From: an uncultured Eubacteriales bacterium
GTDB lineage: Bacteria; Bacillota; Clostridia; Oscillospirales; CAG-272
NCBI GenBank assembly: GCA_902491535.1
Contig: CABUHS010000010.1
Span: 6,541-70,540 of the forward strand
DNA: 64,000 nucleotides
Direction: 5' to 3'
A program made the position numbers and the translations under genes. Of the stretch, positions 579 to 40,525 are shown piece by piece. The notes beneath the pieces are model-generated. The model saw only the letters and a program-made list of their open reading frames with translations, ran no database searches and had not been told where the DNA came from. The first letter of the stretch is position 1. Every line of letters starts with the position of its first letter.

Positions 579-2327
579 CTACTTAACTCTCAGCGCAGAT
601 ATTCTGTCGGGATCCGGGGTAACATAAGCAGTCCAGTTTTTTGTATACGTCACAAATCCCGGCTTTGAACCTGCGGGCTTCTTGATATATCTTATCTGAG
701 TATAATCAACAGCGGTATTCTCGCCGCTTTCCGCCTTCGAATTAAATGCTGCTATCTCGGCAGCTTCGGTAAAATCGGAAACGTCCGGTTCGTTTTCTCC
801 GTCAGTAAACAATACAACATGAGAACCCGGCACATTCTTAGCATGAAACCACCAATCCGAGCGCTCCGCAGTCTTTGTTGTAAGTATATCATTCTGTATA
901 TTATTCCGTCCGCACAGTACACGGTAACCTCCCGACGTTCTGTATTCTATAGCACGGACACGGCGAACCTGTTTTTTCTGATTCTTTTTGTTTTTAATAT
1001 CCTTTGCCAAGCCCGTTTCGGCGAGTTCAGCGCGTATTTCATCTATATCCGATTCAGATTCGCATCTTGACAGCGCGTCAAGCACGGTGTCTATATATAC
1101 AAGTTCTGATTCGGCAAGCTTTATCTGTTCGGCAAGAACCTGCTCTGCGGTTTTCAGCTTTGAATATTTTCTGTAGTATTTCTGTGCATTCTGAGAGGGA
1201 GACATACGCGGATCGAGAGGAACAGTGACCTGCTCAAGTCCCTCGGAATAATAGTCGGTAAGCTCCGCCGACGTCATACCCTTGCTCACTGCCCATATAT
1301 TTGAAGTAATAAGATCACCGAAACGTTTAAGCTTCTCGCCGTCTGCACATCCTGCAAGCTCCTCGCGCTGAAGCACAAGCTTCCTGCGCAATCTTGCGTC
1401 GGCGTTTCCGAGCATATGCAGTATATCCGACTCGCGCTGCCTGATACGCTCCGCGCGGTCCCGTTCACCGAAAAATAGTTCAAGCAAAGCGGATATACCG
1501 GCAGGATGCTCAACAGACGCGGTGTCTCCGTAAACACCTACATCCGTAAAACAGTATTCGATCGGCTTTTTATCCGCATCGCGGACAAGTGTCGGCTGAT
1601 ATATACCGAGTTCAAGATCCTTCAGTATACCGGACATAACATCGAAAAGGCGCTCGCAGCTATCTGAAGCACGGTGTGCGATCTCCTTTGCGAGAAGCGA
1701 GGATATTCCAAGATAGTGCGCAGTTATAAATTTATCCGCACGCAAAGTTCCGCCGTCAAAAAGTCCTTCGGCACGGCATAGGGAAAGAAAATGCTTTCTG
1801 CTCTCTGTCCTCGGATCAAGCTTATCCTGAGGAGGCGGAAGCTCGTATTTCATTCCGGGCAGAACCTGTCTTTTCTGACTTGTCGTAAAATCCACAGTAC
1901 GGCATGCTCCGAGTATGCGGTGATCTCCGTCACAGAAAATAATATTGCTGTACTTTCCCATTATTTCGATGATAAGAGAACGTCTCGCGGAAAAACCCAT
2001 TTCGTCCGTTCCGTCAAAAACAAGCTCAAGCACCCGTTCAAATCCCGGCTGGATAATTTCAGTCAGCTTAGCGCCGGAAAGATGTTTTCGCAGAAGCATG
2101 CAGAACATCGGAGCGGTAAGCGGATTCTCCTTGACCGAGGAGGTAACATGTATTCTCGGCGAGCTTGGCGACGCCGATATAAGCAGTCTTTCACTGCTTC
2201 TGTCCCTGTGAAGGATCAGTATAAGTTCATCTTTTTCCGGTTGCTGCACCTTCTCAACGCGCGCTCCGGTAAAGCAGCGCCGCAATTCATCTGCGACCGC
2301 CGCGACCATTCCTGCATCAAATGCCAT
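579..2327 (-). CDS. rqcH: Ribosome quality-control protein RqcH (NFACT / fibronectin-binding protein A family, DUF814)
   Basis: 582-aa ORF. It has an NFACT-N-like N-terminus (MAFDAGMV...EKVQQPEKDELIL), a central coiled coil, and a C-terminal NFACT-R/DUF814 region (WWFHAKNVPGSHVVL). Confidence 0.9.
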   Translation of the reverse strand: MAFDAGMVAAVADELRRCFTGARVEKVQQPEKDELILILHRDRSSERLLISASPSSPRIHVTSSVKENPLTAPMFCMLLRKHLSGAKLTEIIQPGFERVLELVFDGTDEMGFSARRSLIIEIMGKYSNIIFCDGDHRILGACRTVDFTTSQKRQVLPGMKYELPPPQDKLDPRTESRKHFLSLCRAEGLFDGGTLRADKFITAHYLGISSLLAKEIAHRASDSCERLFDVMSGILKDLELGIYQPTLVRDADKKPIEYCFTDVGVYGDTASVEHPAGISALLELFFGERDRAERIRQRESDILHMLGNADARLRRKLVLQREELAGCADGEKLKRFGDLITSNIWAVSKGMTSAELTDYYSEGLEQVTVPLDPRMSPSQNAQKYYRKYSKLKTAEQVLAEQIKLAESELVYIDTVLDALSRCESESDIDEIRAELAETGLAKDIKNKKNQKKQVRRVRAIEYRTSGGYRVLCGRNNIQNDILTTKTAERSDWWFHAKNVPGSHVVLFTDGENEPDVSDFTEAAEIAAFNSKAESGENTAVDYTQIRYIKKPAGSKPGFVTYTKNWTAYVTPDPDRISALRVK

Positions 2328-2339
2328 TTTTATTCTTCC

Positions 2340-2760
2340 TTATTATATCATAAATCGTTGCGTGAAACGCAGCTGCGCCTCAAGGCGCGGGACTGCACAT
2401 CCGTCGATTTAGTCATTCAATGTTTTCTCAGACATCCGAAATCTCGCATAGCAAGGTTTCGGTTTACGTCGTGAGGTTATTATATCATAAATCGCTGCGT
2501 GAAACGCAGCAGCGCCGTATGGCGCGGGACGGCGAAGCTGTGATTTAGTCATTCAATGTTCTCTCAGACGTCCGAAATCTTGCATAGCGAGGTTTCGGTT
2601 TACGTCGTGAGGTTATTATATCATAAATCGCTGCGTGAAACGCAGCAGCGCCGTATGGCGCGGGACGGCGAAGCTGTGATTTAGTCATTCAATGTTCTCT
2701 CAGACGTCCGAAATCTTGCATAGCGAGGTTTCGGTTTACGTCGTGAGGTTATTATATCAT
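2340..2760. repeat. Three tandem copies (137, 136, 136 nt) of a hairpin-rich element plus a terminal 12-nt partial unit
   Basis: The unit start ttattatatcat recurs at 2340, 2477, 2613 and 2749. Units 2 and 3 look identical by eye, and unit 1 is diverged. Each unit holds several short GC-rich stem-loops. Confidence 0.9.
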
Positions 2761-2845
2761 ATTTACTTGAATTTCGCAATCCCGAAAAAATACCGGATAG
2801 TGTTATTTGGATGTAGTTGTATCGCGTTTCCGGTTTATGCAAGTG

Positions 2846-2874
2846 TTGACATTTTTTTTTAATTATGCTACAAT
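2846..2874 (+). promoter_or_regulatory. Sigma-A type promoter for valS
   Basis: TTGACA (2846-2851), an exact 17-nt spacer, then TACAAT (2869-2874), about 85 nt upstream of the valS ATG. Confidence 0.65.
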
Positions 2875-2959
2875 ATATCTATTATTATAAAATAAGATTT
2901 GTACCGGATCACAGCTGTTTACAAAAAACATATATCTGTCTGAAAGGAATGAAAATATA

Positions 2960-5605
2960 ATGAAAAAAGAGTTGGCAAAAACTTATGCCCCGTCTGAATT
3001 TGAGGATAAGTGGTATAAGTTTTGGGAGGAAAACGGTTATTTCAAACCGGATGACGACCGGAGCAAAGAGCCGTTTAATATAGTTATTCCGCCTCCGAAT
3101 GTTACCGGACAGCTTCACATGGGACATGCTCTCAACAATACACTTCAGGATATTCTTATCCGCACAAAGCGCATGCAGGGATACAATACCATGTGGATTC
3201 CCGGAACCGATCACGCGGGTATTGCAACGCAGATCAAGGTTGAGCAGATGCTCCGCGAAGAAAAAGGACTTTCCCGTCATGATATCGGACGCGAGGAATT
3301 TCTGAAGCTTGTATGGCAGTGGAAGGAAAAGTACGGTGACCGTATTATAAATCAGCTCAAGAAGATCGGATCGTCATGTGACTGGAGCCGCGAGTGCTTC
3401 ACTATGGACGATAATCTTTCTGCCGCTGTAAGAAAGACCTTTGTAAATCTTTATAACAAAGGACTTATATACCGCGGTTTCCGTATTATAAACTGGTGTC
3501 CGAGCTGTGCTACCGCGATCAGTGATGCGGAAGTAGAGCATAAGGAGCTTGAGGGAGCATTTTGGCATATCCGTTATAAACTGTCCGACTGCGACGAGTA
3601 TCTTACAGTTGCTACGACACGTCCGGAGACGATGCTCGGAGATACTGCTGTTGCAGTAAACCCCGAGGACGAGAGATATAAGAAATATATCGGAAAAATG
3701 CTTGTTCTGCCGCTTACAGGCAGACAGATTCCTGTCGTTGCCGACGAGCATGCGAAACCCGAATTCGGAACGGGATGCGTTAAGATCACTCCGTGTCATG
3801 ATCCGAACGACTTTGAAGTCGCACAGCGTCATGGCCTTCCGATGATACAGGTGCTTACGCCTGACGCAAAGATGAACGACGAATGCGGTGTTTACGCAGG
3901 ACTTGACCGCTACGAGGCGCGCAAACGCATAGTTGCGGATCTTGAAGCTTGCGGAGCGCTTGTTAAAATTGAAAAATGCACGCATGAGGTCGGTCATTGC
4001 TACCGCTGCGGAACGGTTCTTGAGCCGACTGCATCGCGCCAGTGGTTTGTTCGCATGAAGCCGCTTGCCGATCCGGCTATCAAGGTCGTTCGCGACGGTA
4101 CGGTAGACTATATTCCCGAAAGATTCTCCAAGCTTTACCTTAACTGGATGGAGAATATTCACGACTGGTGTATTTCGCGTCAGCTTTGGTGGGGACACCG
4201 TATCCCTGCTTATTACTGCGATGACTGTGGCGAAATGATCGTTTCAGAAGAAAATGTTGCAGTCTGCCCGAAGTGCGGTTCCGCACATGTTCATCAGGAC
4301 GAAGATGTTCTTGATACATGGTTTTCATCTGCGCTTTGGCCGTTCTCCACGCTCGGATGGCCGAACAATACAAAAGATCTCGAATATTTCTATCCTACTT
4401 CGGTTCTTGTTACCGCTTACGATATCATAACCTTCTGGGTATCTAAGATGATATTTATGGGACTTGAAAATATGAGCAGCGTATTTCCGGATGATGTGAA
4501 AAAACAGATTCCGTTCCCGCATGTCTTTATTCACGGACTTGTCCGTGACGCGCAGGGAAGAAAGATGTCAAAATCGCTCGGAAACGGTATCGATCCGCTC
4601 GAAGTTGTTGAAAAATACGGCGCTGACGCGCTTCGCTTTGCGCTTACGACAGGAAATTCTCCCGGAAATGACATGCGTTTTTCGGATGAGAAGATCGAGG
4701 CGGCGCGTAACTTTGCAAATAAGCTTTGGAATGCAGCTCGCTTTGTTCTTATGAATCTTACAACTGACGAGACAGGACTTCCATGTTCTGATGAACTTGC
4801 GCTCGAGGACAGATGGATACTGACGCGTTTTGAGCGTCTTACAGCTGAAGTTACAGAAAATATCGACCGCTATGAGCTTGGAGTTGCTCTCTCGAAGCTT
4901 TATGATTTCGTATGGGATGTATTCTGCGATTGGTATATCGAGCTTGTAAAGCCGAGACTTTCGTCAGGAGATACCAACGCTCAGCGCGTGATCGTGTTTG
5001 TTCTTTCGGAGACACTGAAACTTCTGCATCCGTTTATGCCTTTCATTACAGAGGAGATATGGCAGAGTCTGCCGCATGACGGCGAGAGCATTATGATCTC
5101 GGCATATCCGAAATATAATGAAGAGCTTGTATTCGGATCTGATGAGCAGAAGATGGGCCGCATTATTGCCTGTATACGTGCAATAAGAAATCGCCGTGCA
5201 GAGATGAACGTTCCTCCGTCAAAGAAGGCTGCGCTTTACATTGTTACCGCCGACAGGGAGACGTTTGAAGCGGGAAGCGGCTTTTTCGGAAAGCTTGCTT
5301 CGGCTTCTGAGGTGCATGTGGTTGACGGCTATCATGCCGACGATGCCGTTCAGATCGTTTCCGACGCAGCTACGATATATATTCCGCTTGCGGAGATGAT
5401 CGACTTTGAAAAAGAGCTTGCGAGACTTTCCGCCGACAGGGAAAAGACTCTCAGTGAGATCGCGCGTATTGAAAAGAAGCTTGCTAATGAAGGCTTCGTG
5501 TCAAAAGCTCCGGCGGCTGTCGTTGAAGGTGAACGCAAGAAGCTCGACGGATATCGCGATACGCTTGACAATATAGAAAAGGCTATCGCAAAGATCGCAA
5601 AATAA
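2960..5605 (+). CDS. valS: Valine--tRNA ligase
   Basis: 881-aa ORF with a class I HIGH-type motif ([12 protein letters not shown]), KMSKS ([10 protein letters not shown]) and the C-terminal coiled-coil typical of ValRS. Confidence 0.97.
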
Positions 5606-15600: not shown

Positions 15601-18600
15601 ATGAGAAAAACAACTAAAAAGCTGTTGTCCTCAGCGCTTGCTGGTCTGTTTGTACTCTCAAGCCTTCCTCTGATGGGTGCTGCGGAGGCAGAGGGCAATA
15701 CAGCTCTCGCTTACACACCTACTCTTGACGGAGTAAAGGATGAGGCGTATGACGCAAGCTACAGCCGAAAGATTGATACAGCATTCGGCAGTGTGGATTT
15801 CAGCTTCCTGTATGACAATGATTATATCTATGTTTACGCTGATTCTGTAGGATCGAGCGGATGGGACTGCTTTACGCTTGGCATGATGTTAACTGATTCA
15901 CCCAAAGATAATTGGGATGCAGTTAATGCAGCAGGTGTTTTCGGAAGCAATCCTCATCTTGATGGATTTGACCTTCGTCACTGGATCGACGTTATGGGAA
16001 CCGGTCATAAAAATCTTGGATGGAATATCGGATGGCAGGATGGAACAAAACCTGCCGATGATACAATGGAACTTGTAGATACAACTCCTGCAACCGAATA
16101 TAAGCTCGTTCGCGGCGAAGAAAAAGGTGCGGTTCTCGAATTTAGAATTGCATACAAGGGTATCACAAAGGAACAGAAGCATGGAGCGCACTCTGGGGCG
16201 GAACTGACTATGCAACTTTCGTACTCGGAGATGAGTATAAGGCAACAGTTCCTGATGATACATCAGCTCCTGTAACAGACGTTCCTACAGAACCCGCAAC
16301 AGAGACTCCTACAGAGCCTGAAACAGATGCTCCTGTAGATCCCCCTGTTGAAGATGCTGATTCTGCTCTCAAGTTTACCCCTGTTCTTGACGGCGTAAAG
16401 GATGAAGCGTATAATGACAGCTTTACCTATCATATCGACGCGACTGCAAATAATTGGGGAAGCGTTGATGCATCATTCCTTTATGATGCAGACTACATTT
16501 ATGTACTTGCTGACATAAAAGACACTGCAAAAGGTACGTTTGACAACTTTGACCTTGCAATCGCAGCAGGCGATGCTCATTGCCAGGTTGTATGTAATCA
16601 GGCATTTAAGGGTCAAGATGGTAGTACACTTTTCTGCCGCCTTTGGGAAGCTGCTGTCGGCGAGATCGGTACTAACCTTAATGTAGGTGCTGAGTCCGCG
16701 GCAACAGAGTTTGCTATAGTAGAAAACGAGGGCGGATACGTTCTTGAGTTCCGTGTTAAGTATGCAGGCAATACCGGAGATGAGATTACAATTAACGGTA
16801 CTGACTCACTTAACGGTTGGAATAACATTGCAGCAGACGGAAAGAAATTTGTTCTCGGCGAAGAGTACGCAGTTGCCCCTGCCGGCAACGAAGCTATCAA
16901 GTACACTCCTGTTCTTGACGGCGTAAAAGACGCAGCATATGATAAAAGCTATAATTTCCATATGGATGCTGCATATGGTGGAGTAGACGGAAGCTTCCTC
17001 TACGATGCTGATTATATTTATATGTATTTAGATGTAACTTCAGCAGAGAAGAGTTTATGGGATATTTTCGGTATCTCAATGATAGCTTCAGCTACACCTA
17101 ATAATGACATGGATGCAGCATGCAAAGCAGCAGTGCATCTGGTAAGCAATCCTTTTTATGAAGGAAACGAGATCAGAAACTGGCAGCAGGTAATGACAGG
17201 ATATCAGAATCTTGGATTTAATCTTGGCTGGCAGGAAGCTGTTCCTGAAGATGATACTTTAGAGCTTGTAAAGACAACTCCTGCGACGGAGTTCGCTGCT
17301 AATGCAACAGAAACCGGAACAGGACTTGAAATCAGAATTGCATATAAGAATCTTGTTAAAGGTGATGCAATTTCATTTGCAACAGATGCAGGAACGAATA
17401 GCTGGGGTAATGTTTGGAGTTCTGAGAACTACGAAACATTTATTCTCGGTGATGACTTCGGTCATACTCACGTATTTGATGAAGAGTACACAGTAGATGT
17501 AGCTCCTACATGTGTTTCTAAAGGTTCTGAGTCACGTCACTGCAAAGATTTTGCAGAATGCGGCGGAAAGACCGATGTAAGAGAGATCGCTATGATCGAT
17601 CACAACGTTGTCGACGGCACATGCACAATGTGCGGCAGACAGAACGTAAAGAAAGCTACACCTACACTTGACGGTGTACTTGATGACGCATACCTCTCTT
17701 CTGCTGTTTACAAGACTGTAGACAATGCAACAGCAGGTAAGGCTGAATTCGGATGGTCGGCGCCCGGCGCATCAAAGAGAATGGCACTTATAAGAGCCGG
17801 CATTATGGATACAGACGGCAAGTTTCTTACCGGTGGAGATTACAGCGTAAGCGCCTTTGCAAAATCAGAAACCTACTTCCTGTGGGATGATGATGCTATC
17901 TATGTATTCGCGAAAGTATACGATGACGCAATATTCCCGACTGCTGAGGAAGATGTAAACGCATGGATTGATGCCGGACAGAGAGATGTTCCGTGGATCA
18001 ATGACCTCGTTCAGCACAGCATATCTTTCCTCGGAGATGCTGCTAACAATATAACCGTTATGGCAAACGCAGGCGGAAACGCTGTATTTGCGCGCAATGC
18101 AAACGGTGTAACAACGATTGAACAGTATTTGACTTATGAAAACAATGCAAATGTTGCAGGTACGGTAGAAGACGGCTATTATACAGTCGAAGTTCGCCTC
18201 CCTGTAAACAATGACCTTAAGGAATACTTCCTTACCGAAGGATCAGATTTCGATTACGGTTACGGAATCTTTGATGTAAGTGCCGAAAAATCAGAAGACG
18301 GCGGCAATGGAATGAACCACGGTGAGTGGGTATGGATAAAGAACCAGGACAATGCAACAGGTTCGTTTATTCTTGTCGCAGATGATACTCCTGTTGATCC
18401 CGGCGATGATACGACGGCTCCTGATGTAAGCGATACAGCAGAGCCTCCTACAGAGTCTGAGACAGAAGCTCCGGTAGATCCTCAGCCTTCAAGTAATGTT
18501 ATCAAGAAGGGTACACCTGAGCTTGACGGCGTACTCGACGGCAAATATCTCGGTTCCGCAGTTTACAGAACAATTGACAGCGCAAAAGCAGGCAAGTCTG

Positions 18601-19676
18601 AGTTTGGATGGTCGAACCCCAGCGTAGCAAAGAGAATGGCACTTATCAGAGCAGGCGTTATGAAGATAAATGGTGATGCTTATGATCTTCTTCCTGACGG
18701 TGATTTCAGCGTAAGCGCTTTTGCAAAATCAGAGACCTACTTCCTGTGGGATGACGATGCACTCTACATCTTCTCAACGATATATGACAGCGATCCTCTC
18801 GCTATCGTAGGCGAAGATGCAGCAGCTAAGAATGACTGGGCATATAATGATATTCCGTGGCTTTCCGACAATATCGTACACAACATTTACACAGCAGCAG
18901 GCAATCTTGCTATTGAAGCAAATGCAGGCGGTGAACTTGTATACGACCGTTTGCTTAATGGTACACCTCTCGGTACTCCCACAGTATCCTCAATTGCCGG
19001 ACGCTGCACATGGGATAACAGCGATAACGTAAGAGGTGTTGTTGAATCAGACCGTTACACAATAGAGGTCCGCATTCCGATTCTTGATTCCGTAAAGGCT
19101 GATGTTCTTAAGGACGGAGCAACCTTCGATTACGGTTACTGGATTTTCGACGGTGACGGTGTTCCGAACGATACAAAGTGGACTTGGGTAAAGAATAAAG
19201 ATACCGAGCTTACTACATTCACTCTTTCCGCTGACGCAGCAATTGCTCCGGATACAACATCGCCTGATGTAAGCGATACAAGTGAACCGCCTACAGATAC
19301 ACCTGAAGTAAGCGACACAAATGAGCCGCCTACAGATACACCTGAAGTAAGCGACACAAATGAACCGCCTACAGATACACCTGAAGTAAGCGACACAAAT
19401 GAGCCGCCTACAGATACACCTGAAGTAAGCGACACAAATGAGCCGCCTACAGACACACCTGAAGTAAGCGATACCGACGAGCCTACTCCCGATAACCTCG
19501 GTGATGTAAACGGCGACGGTATTGTAAATGCTAAGGACCTTGTTCGTCTTATGAAGCGTGTAGCCGGCGATGAAACAATTGAAATTATCGGAACTGCTGA
19601 TATCAACGGCGACGGTGTTATCAACTCTAAAGACCTTGTTCGTCTTATGAAGATTATTGCTGAACAGACAGCATAA
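15601..19676 (+). CDS. Secreted multi-module dockerin (cellulosomal) protein with repeated CBM9-like/DOMON-like modules; reading frame broken once near 16167-16170
   Basis: It starts with a signal peptide (MRKTTKKLLSSALAGLFVLSSLPLMGAAEA). A P(T/V)LDGV(K/L)D..Y module start recurs at about 15720, 16380, 16905, 17650 and 18520. Pro/Thr/Glu linkers are present. The C-terminal type I dockerin duplicate is GDVNGDGIVNAKDLVRLMK / ADINGDGVINSKDLVRLMK. Frame 1 (15601-16275) continues without stops in frame 3 from 16146 to 19676. Confidence 0.8.
19263..19496 (+). repeat. Six in-frame tandem 39-nt repeats encoding the linker PEVSDTNEPPTDT
   Basis: Units start at 19263, 19302, 19341, 19380, 19419 and 19458. 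The inner four are near identical and the outer two are degenerate. Confidence 0.9.
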
Positions 19677-40382: not shown

Positions 40383-40525
40383 TATTATAACATAAATCTA
40401 AGGCGAAGCCTTGTAAGCGGCAAAGCCGATAGGACGTAAGTCCTAATTTATGCTTCAATGTTCTCTCAGATGTCCAAAGGTTTGCTCAGCAAAGCTTCGG
40501 TATACATCGTGAGGTTATTATAACA
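40383..40525. repeat. Single diverged copy of the 136-nt hairpin-rich element seen at 2340-2760
   Basis: It shares the core attcaatgttctctcaga.gtcc.aa and the 3' end cgtgaggttattata. It is bounded by the direct repeat tattataaca (40383-40392 and 40516-40525). Confidence 0.8.

Follow-up and report, generated by a model that had tools for sequence, protein, structure and literature searches.

Small intergenic repeats are usually filed as repetitive extragenic palindromic (REP) sequences or as MITEs (miniature transposable elements with inverted repeats), which says little about mechanism. BOX elements of Streptococcus pneumoniae (boxA-boxB(n)-boxC) are modular structured intergenic repeats whose tandem internal modules vary in number, and they occur in transcribed leaders; we know of no -10-box junctions, promoter targeting or fixed orientation in BOX elements. 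The palindrome-associated transposable elements (PATEs) derived from IS200/IS605 are not known to have terminal inverted repeats or a fixed duplication. They carry subterminal hairpins and insert in a strand-specific manner next to a short sequence that is repeated at their other end, which would allow tandem insertion. Here we have analysed an array of three tandem units in front of rqcH, within a 64,000-nucleotide stretch (the window) of contig CABUHS010000010.1 from an uncultured Eubacteriales bacterium of the Oscillospirales, together with the dispersed family of repeats to which these units belong.

Three further groups of described sequences are relevant for comparison. Correia elements (CREE/NEMIS) of Neisseria are non-coding, multi-copy sequences of ~100-155 bp that bear promoters, are co-transcribed with their neighbours and form stable RNA hairpins (PMC2229807, PMC3575422); they end in 24-bp terminal inverted repeats and are accompanied by a TA duplication (PMC2229807, Table 1). 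The REP, BIME and REPIN sequences associated with RAYT are hairpin-based intergenic repeats of high copy number that cluster and change in number (PMC3116915). Putative mobile promoters were reported by Matus-Garcia, Nijveen and van Passel in 2012 as highly similar upstream regions before unrelated genes, some of them shared between genera and up to phyla and mobilised in a way that the authors left as unknown (PMC3575422). That survey lists similarities across the -150 to -50 region and does not give boundaries, structures or insertion sites of elements (PMC3575422).

The three units at rqcH are best explained as probable copies of a mobile element that is small and non-autonomous, has spread horizontally and acts at -10 boxes. 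What carries this reading are the anatomy and fold of the units, the boxes at their junctions, their orientation towards genes, their presence or absence at -10 boxes, the flux in copy number and the patchy distribution of the family. The element, which is small, non-coding and comes from gut Clostridia, is apparently undescribed: its core 16-mers and the box-plus-CCTCAC string were not found in the papers searched, and keyword searches of the literature returned only general papers on MITEs, REP sequences and mobile promoters.

The array and its dispersed family

Tandem Repeats Finder returned a single array at 2340-2761 with a period of 136 nt, 3.1 copies and 94% matches, in agreement with an earlier note on this DNA that had described three tandem 136-nt units at 2340-2760. 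Several other readings of that note were borne out. Units 2 and 3 are identical, and the divergence of unit 1, put at roughly a dozen positions, was counted as ~14 substitutions and one 1-nt indel. The hairpins gctgcgt-gaa-acgcagc, gcgcc/ggcgc and ccgaaa...tttcgg are all present, and the units are contiguous without unique spacers; this is indeed no CRISPR array. The TATAAT noted in each unit proved to mark its boundaries: read in the sense direction of rqcH, every boundary is an extended -10 box (TGATATAAT). The array is closed by the 12-base ttattatatcat at 2749-2760. The distance to the rqcH ATG needed a small correction, from 13 nt to 12 nt (GGAAGAATAAAA at 2328-2339). Both strands of the array form much more stable folds than shuffled sequence does (z = -8.8 and -9.9).

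Another public assembly (L213) has the same 3.1-copy array between valS and rqcH, at 100% identity across 691 nt, and two further public contigs break within the array. Arrays of this kind break short-read assemblies and may mislead promoter and small RNA (sRNA) annotation, and we cannot be certain of the exact number of identical units in a short-read assembly.

The unit had been regarded as a feature of rqcH, but it belongs instead to a dispersed family with about 40 copies in the genome. A first search with the unit, of the kind proposed in the earlier note, gave 45 matches in the window's own 2.5-Mb genome (G000), and iterative nhmmer resolved these to 40 units at 34 loci, including four further tandem pairs. 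The other copy in the window (40385-40525) is located behind TTCACA-17-TGTTATAAT, 40 nt upstream of the ribosome-binding site of a gene for an XRE/TPR-type regulator.

Unit anatomy is described here on the minus strand of the window, which is sense for rqcH (the S strand). On this strand a unit consists of the box TGnTATAAT(AA), the motif CCTCACG, a hairpin with a conserved 3-nt bulge, the invariant core CTGAGAGAACATTGAA, a closing helix (P1) that encloses a variable domain, and then the next box. Neighbouring units share a single box, and N units accordingly carry N+1 boxes. The long hairpin of unit 2 is flanked by the invariant CCTCAC (2607-2612) and by CTGAGAG. In the own genome the variable domain exists in four unrelated sequence versions, all of which fold as P1 with three short hairpins, and the long hairpin in two versions, the modules being combined freely. 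In other genomes the variable domain may be reduced to one hairpin or an AT-rich loop, with core, CCTCACG and box unchanged, and it holds one to three hairpins across the family. The ends, ACCTCACG... and ...RTGN(TATAA), are not inverted copies of each other, and terminal inverted repeats were thus not found. A coding role was considered and rejected, since open reading frames (ORFs) of 42-53 codons across the units are not conserved between variants and the hairpin lengths vary out of frame.

The fold of the long hairpin is strongly supported by covariation. Among 52 distinct hairpin modules from many genomes, 98.1% of the cells are paired and 114 cells are doubly changed. Compensatory changes in the long hairpin affect 10 of its 12 pairs, none of 500 shuffles did equally well, and slid controls pair at only 35-43%. 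The base N of TGN in the box and the base adjacent to the core are Watson-Crick partners in 52 of 66 distinct copies, and P1 hence reaches into the box.

The family is distributed in a patchy manner. It is present in only two of 61 sampled relatives, namely G000 and a congeneric sister species (G003) with a 95% identical RqcH; it was found in none of the other 59 and is absent from five of six congeners. When 401 genomes drawn evenly from the order were searched with a strict core pattern, eight carriers (~2%) were obtained, in seven of 179 genera and in five families, each with 2 to 31 strict matches. The identical 16-mer together with the box also occurs in isolates and metagenome-assembled genomes (MAGs), including Faecalispora jeddahensis, Anaeromassilibacillus senegalensis, Clostridium minihomine, Ruminococcus species and Clostridia bacterium i40-0019-1A8, where it often forms arrays (2-5 units, period 90-136 nt). 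About 280 matches to a random 16-mer are expected in this collection, and single hits in unrelated phyla are therefore attributed to chance; likewise, cores without a nearby box represent chance 16-mer hits or truncated copies. Plasmid and phage records searched for the element gave no match, and the single matching IMG/VR contig is host DNA with a 4-unit array before a gene. Patchiness together with sequence identity implies that the element spread horizontally and then multiplied in bursts.

Table 1. Positions in the window of the array, its parts and neighbouring features.
Feature	Position	Strand	Basis and remarks
Whole array: three units placed head to tail, and a fourth box at the outer end	2340..2760	-	Tandem Repeats Finder; second assembly identical
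Unit 1, gene-proximal, 137 nt; box 2340-2351 abuts the rqcH ribosome-binding site	2340..2476	-	89.7% identity to units 2/3
Unit 2; box 2477-2488	2477..2612	-	Identical to unit 3
Unit 3, promoter-proximal; box 2613-2624	2613..2748	-	Identical to unit 2
Box 4, outermost: ATGATATAATAA	2749..2760	-	Sequence read
Unit 2 variable domain, helix P1 (2488-2493 with 2542-2547) around three short hairpins	2488..2547	-	Folding
Unit 2 invariant 16-nt core, CTGAGAGAACATTGAA (minus) / TTCAATGTTCTCTCAG (plus)	2552..2567	-	Identical copies in several families of the order
Long hairpin of unit 2, with bulge: outer stem 5 bp, bulge 3 nt, inner stem	2568..2606	-	Folding and covariation
Predicted outer promoter of the array: -35 TTGCGA (2779-2774), 17-nt spacer with TG, -10 TATAAT (2756-2751)	2751..2779	-	Promoter scan, 10/12 matches
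Second copy in the window, single, with a different variable domain	40385..40525	-	nhmmer, 97.8 bits
rqcH ribosome-binding site (GGAAG) and ATG	2325..2339	-	Continuous with sister-species empty site ...GATATAAAGGAAGAATAAAAATG
rqcH, gene served by the array; NFACT_N and NFACT-R_1	579..2327	-	Pfam, E = 3.8e-132
valS, divergent from rqcH	2960..5605	+	Pfam
Predicted valS consensus promoter TTGACA-17-TACAAT with TG, separate from the element	2846..2874	+	Promoter scan

Other features were encountered beside these. Between the array and valS (2762-2959), the near-consensus valS promoter is followed by an untranslated leader of ~85 nt, in which no match to a T-box or other Rfam leader was found. A tandem repeat with a period of 39 nt, 5.4 copies and 95% identity (CCTGAAGTAAGCGACACAAATGAGCCGCCTACAGATACA) occupies positions 19263-19471 of the window, and repeats of 24 nt and 21 nt were seen near it (16274-16334 and 19392-19457); all three are probably in-frame repeats of a surface protein. 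Elsewhere in the genome a second repeat family travels with the element (C4:79400-79770, C34:620-730 and C46:3100-3365; also C4:21215, C17:19695, C26:6118 and C34:615). It consists of TAAGCGCAGAAAGTCTTACTGCGTAAGCC...CTGCGCAA followed by a promoter-like module, CAATTGACGG...TTGCGAGCAAACATTTTTGCTTCATGGTA(A/G)AAT, which contains a palindrome (GCAAACATTTTTGC) that could be an operator and runs directly into CCTCACG of an intact or truncated element.

Insertion sites, orientation and the history of the rqcH locus

Filled and empty sites were compared between the two congeneric species. Twenty loci of G000 could be anchored in G003. Both genomes have the element at about nine of them, in some cases with unequal numbers of units, and about ten are empty or rearranged. 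At C33 the empty site of G003 reads TTGCAA-17-TGATATAATAAATTTG and the filled site of G000 reads TGGTATAATAA[CCTCAC ... AAATTG]TGGTATAATAAATTTA, with the element in square brackets. At C21 the corresponding sequences are TTGACA-17-TGTTATAATAAAAAAT (empty) and TGTTATAATA[ACCTCAC ... TTTTATGATATAATA]AAAAT (filled), and at C8 a tract of ATATAT in G003 is filled in G000. The reverse situation, filled in G003 and empty in G000, is seen at L179, where the empty site is TTGCAA-17-TATGATATAATA, at L183, where the duplication consists of TAATA only, and at L178, where TGATAT is duplicated. In general, empty sites are -10-like boxes, several of them in canonical TTGACA-17-TATAAT promoters, and a box is found on both sides of the element. 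The duplicated stretch of the box measures 4-12 bp, its length follows how closely the target resembles the box of the element itself, and TAATA is the common minimum. These exact pairs of filled and empty sites indicate that the element enters, or precisely leaves, TATAAT-like boxes in one orientation. Judged from the sequences at the junctions, the variable duplication would resemble recombination in a short shared core more than a fixed staggered cut.

Between congeners the number of copies shifts at nearly all loci. Copy number is in flux also in another family of the order, where the ~90% identical genomes G208 and G143 differ in the number of units at all nine comparable arrays, and where a 7-unit array in G208 corresponds to an empty site in G143 (GGGTATAATAA/CAGGAAG). 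Two arrays of 5 to 7 units in G208, with a period of 126-128 nt (L200 and L201; G208:C10:264300-266300 and 347100-348600), have inner boxes changed to ATTGAATAA, a repeat of the end of the core (CATTGAA).

The position of the copies relative to genes was assessed with crude ORF calls, and the genomes are mostly MAGs. The gene downstream in the S direction is co-oriented at 26 of 30 loci in the own genome and at 58 of 67 external loci (~87%), and starts at a median distance of ~80 nt from the element. No element locus was found inside an ORF, compared with 937 of the 1489 free TATAATA sites in the genome that are genic. The genes behind the element are unrelated and encode, among others, GAPDH, a HIT protein, adenylosuccinate lyase (PurB), AdoHcy hydrolase (AhcY), the delta' subunit of DNA polymerase III (HolB), DAHP synthase, rubrerythrin, an ABC ATPase, an M18 aminopeptidase, a YfbR-like HD protein and tRNA-Val.

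A hexamer resembling the -35 sequence TTGACA (at least 4 of 6 positions, at a spacing of 16-18 nt) precedes 38 of 96 outer boxes, in contrast to 2 of 51 inner boxes and 11.7% of random sites, and the spacer is exactly 17 nt in 28 of those 38 cases. In the own genome ~80% of the gene-proximal boxes are full TATAAT boxes with TRTG. A ribosome-binding site follows directly after the box at several loci, including rqcH and C2:33852, and at these loci the gene would be expressible only from transcripts that cross the element. The suggestions in the earlier note that the array could supply reiterated promoters, or a long structured leader, are compatible with the boxes at its boundaries, the -35 motif at its outer end and its position abutting the ribosome-binding site.

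The array at rqcH is the product of insertions together with an inversion that captured the promoter of an HD gene, and it is now located behind that promoter. A GNAT-like gene lies before rqcH, on the same strand, in G003 and in four further congeners. In G003 the upstream spacer of rqcH, ...CAGGATATAAAGGAAGAATAAAAATG, is without the element, and valS faces a gene for a YfbR-like HD protein with a promoter of its own, TTGCAA-17-TATCAT. Relative to G003, the segment that runs from rqcH to the HD gene is inverted in G000, and both breakpoints fall in element boxes. At one junction the former HD promoter (-35 and spacer) runs into the three units and then via ...TATGATATAA/TAAGGAAG into rqcH, the slash marking the breakpoint; the -35 and spacer of the outer promoter are hence host DNA, orthologous to the HD promoter of G003. 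At the other junction the GNAT-like gene is followed by ...TATATAA/TACCTCACGG, a degenerate copy of the element and GGTATAAAATGCC, the former leader of the HD gene. This degenerate copy lies just outside the window, at C10:4065-4139 (the region compared being C10:3346-4865 and positions 1-2760 of the window), and since it is unique in sequence the inversion junction is not a repeat-induced misassembly. The second assembly has the same gene order in the inverted segment.

A recent duplication, as proposed in the earlier note, holds for units 2 and 3 but not for unit 1, which is a mosaic and not their closest relative: its variable domain is 84.7% identical to that of units 2/3, compared with 90-92% for dispersed copies. 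The pattern fits units that arrived separately, or recombined, before one of them was recently duplicated.

Proposed mechanism and rival explanations

We propose that the element would integrate when one of its copies recombines, inside the box, with a TATAAT-like target. After integration the -35 sequence, spacer and -10 box of the host would transcribe the element, and the 3' end of the element would rebuild an extended -10 box (TRTGnTATAAT) before the unchanged leader of the gene, a property that could explain why insertion is tolerated. The gene would then keep an extended -10 promoter and in addition receive read-through from upstream. If transcription started ~7 nt after the box, the foot of the long hairpin would form the 5' end of the RNA; a hairpin at this place is known to protect mRNAs. 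The terminal boxes of a resident copy may themselves be targets, which would lead to head-to-tail arrays, also of unlike units sharing one box. As for rqcH, it would be transcribed from the outer promoter through a structured leader of ~420 nt, and possibly also from the inner boxes.

A number of observations weigh against this proposal. The mobilising enzyme or an autonomous copy was not found around the copies examined. About 60% of the outer boxes are without a recognisable -35 sequence, and the empty site at rqcH is itself not a promoter. In the genus g113 the inner boxes are degraded to ATTGAATAA or GGAATAATAA with the outer ones still TATAAT, suggesting that inner boxes are dispensable as promoters and that arrays are probably read from the outer end. 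A duplication of 4-12 bp agrees neither with target-site duplications of constant length nor with cleavage at a constant position, and the empty sites could have arisen by precise deletion between the direct repeats that flank the element rather than be pre-insertion sites; for a given site, gain cannot be distinguished from precise loss. What the proposal assumes on promoter activity, read-through and RNA ends is all read from sequence motifs. Finally, mismatches of the wobble type are without strand bias (~26 G·T-type versus 30 A·C-type), and the mismatch spectrum does not support selection on an RNA, whichever the strand.

This last point deserves detail. Counts of G·T-type versus A·C-type mismatches are 9 versus 7 in the hairpin, 8 versus 3 in the variable domain, and 0 versus 11 and 9 versus 9 in P1. 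Minimum free energy weakly favours the plus strand of the window (-2.2 kcal/mol; 21 copies versus 12, p = 0.014), and neither energies nor mismatch spectra permit a call on which strand folds. Selection may consequently act at the DNA level. GNA and AAA triloops closed by C-G are stable DNA mini-hairpins; the stable C-GNA-G and C-AAA-G triloops of the element occupy opposite strands in the variable domain and in the long hairpin.

That distribution of triloops, and the symmetric mismatch spectrum expected under selection at the DNA level, would suit an element that is mobile but inert, i.e. a selfish structured repeat whose box merely mimics or copies its target, whose hairpins and core act as single-stranded or cruciform DNA in its own recombination only, and which offers rqcH only passive read-through. 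The patchy distribution with bursts of copy number in a few lineages, the degrading inner boxes and the copies that mark an inversion breakpoint agree with such a repeat as well. We nevertheless consider it unlikely, given that ~80% of the gene-proximal boxes retain the full TATAAT with TRTG and that the ribosome-binding site placed right after the box at rqcH and C2:33852 leaves expression to transcripts crossing the element. An improbable alternative is that the units are stand-alone sibling sRNA genes, each with its own extended -10 box and a weak terminator, which act in trans via the core and were multiplied by ordinary recombination. The consensus TGnTATAAT does open every unit, a U-rich tail (AUUUAUGAU or CUUUUAUGAU) after the last hairpin was flagged in a scan as weakly terminator-like, the core is invariant across families of the order and the structure is kept by covariation. 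However, the U-rich tail doubles as the 3' strand of P1, G·U is not favoured over A·C, the inner boxes are degraded in other genera, and the copies stand 14-70 nt before co-oriented genes and tRNAs instead of at random intergenic places; the precise presence or absence at -10 boxes would in any case require a mechanism of mobility.

The unpaired conserved core between covarying helices recalls the pattern of ribozymes and riboswitches, and together with the placement in 5' leaders and the tandem arrangement, which is known for some bacterial ribozymes, it might suggest a cis-regulatory leader (a riboswitch-like sensor or self-cleaving ribozyme) that puts many genes under one signal. We regard this as very improbable. 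An Rfam family, sought as the earlier note had recommended, gave nothing relevant for window positions 2000-3300 even at E values up to 10, and only tRNAs were found in 12 related loci at the gathering score. The genes served share no common function and include tRNAs such as tRNA-Val; with the family in 2 of 61 relatives, and missing in 59 of them and in five of six congeners, this is not a regulon passed on by descent; in other genomes unstructured AT-rich sequence can take the place of the variable domain; and the wobble pairs show no strand bias. A riboswitch-type leader was therefore rejected. Purely local tandem duplication of the rqcH promoter region, to which the identity of units 2 and 3 might point, is refuted by the 40 units at 34 loci in the genome and the copies in other families; the sister species has no unit at rqcH, and the variable domain of unit 1 is less similar to units 2/3 than are those of dispersed copies. 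A mobile element acting at -10 boxes thus remains our preferred reading of the array.

If this reading is true, the element would rewire transcription at its landing sites by capturing promoters, stacking extended -10 boxes and adding long structured leaders. Its copy number would shift between close species, and it would mediate inversions, in the abundant and little-studied gut Oscillospirales. It would also offer a concrete, testable case for the idea of mobile promoters, and a defined substrate (box, 16-nt core and bulged hairpin) with which to seek a new recombination activity.

Comparison with known mobile and repeated elements

Known types of mobile element were considered as identities or partners of the family. 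A DDE-type MITE is not supported, as the element lacks terminal inverted repeats and no transposase is recurrent nearby. When the ORFs around 84 external loci were clustered to find an autonomous partner, nothing but large families of paralogues emerged (ABC-F, MATE and ECF sigma factors), and neither a transposase or recombinase gene recurring near the copies nor a long 'master' copy was found. Like the IS200/IS605 elements, the family has no inverted termini and inserts in an oriented manner beside a short specific sequence. A REP/RAYT or IS200 identity was all the same rejected because the Y1 transposase domain (PF01797) is missing in five of nine carriers (G143, G208, G078, G065 and G399). 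The Y1-free carriers include two 99%-complete genomes with 17-31 copies, and Y1 is present in many element-free congeners. The own genome contains a single intact IS200-type tnpA (C13:20520-20876; 150 aa, Y1_Tnp E = 2.7e-41) with typical flanking hairpins, and the ends and sequence of this IS200 copy are unrelated to the element.

Reverse transcriptase domains (RVT_1) are found in six of nine carriers versus one of 18 non-carriers. A dedicated reverse transcriptase was rejected, since the types are heterogeneous, none is located beside the element, and they are absent from the 97-100%-complete carriers G078 and G132; the excess is taken as a correlate of the load of mobile DNA and not as a mechanism. 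Retron-like reverse transcriptases of ~336-355 aa were observed in G143, G208, G003, G065 and G288 (loci L190-L196).

We tentatively suggest, as a possibility with somewhat less than even chances, that the element represents a new kind of mobile element that homes to the sigma-70 -10 hexamer. It would integrate within the box without inverted termini or a known transposase, rebuild an extended -10 promoter at its 3' end, which would keep the host gene expressed, target its own boxes to form arrays and provide inversion breakpoints. Its folded single strand might possibly serve to recognise the melted or AT-rich box, and a new enzyme or a mechanism guided by RNA or DNA structure might be responsible.

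Compared with the described systems, the element resembles Correia elements in being non-coding, multi-copy and hairpin-rich and in carrying promoter boxes. Unlike Correia elements, it is without inverted termini, is found in -10 boxes in one orientation and forms head-to-tail arrays with a shared box. It has its modular tandem structure in common with BOX elements, from which it is set apart here by the description of BOX and not by sequence. In contrast to REP and REPIN sequences its units are about four times longer and branched, with a promoter box and no link to Y1. PATEs differ in their association with TnpA, which the element lacks, and the two ends of the element carry unlike structures. 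The element belongs with the known small dispersed intergenic repeats, here with defined boundaries, a covariation-supported fold and precise empty sites; it is in these boundaries, fold and empty sites that it also differs from the upstream regions of the mobile-promoter survey.

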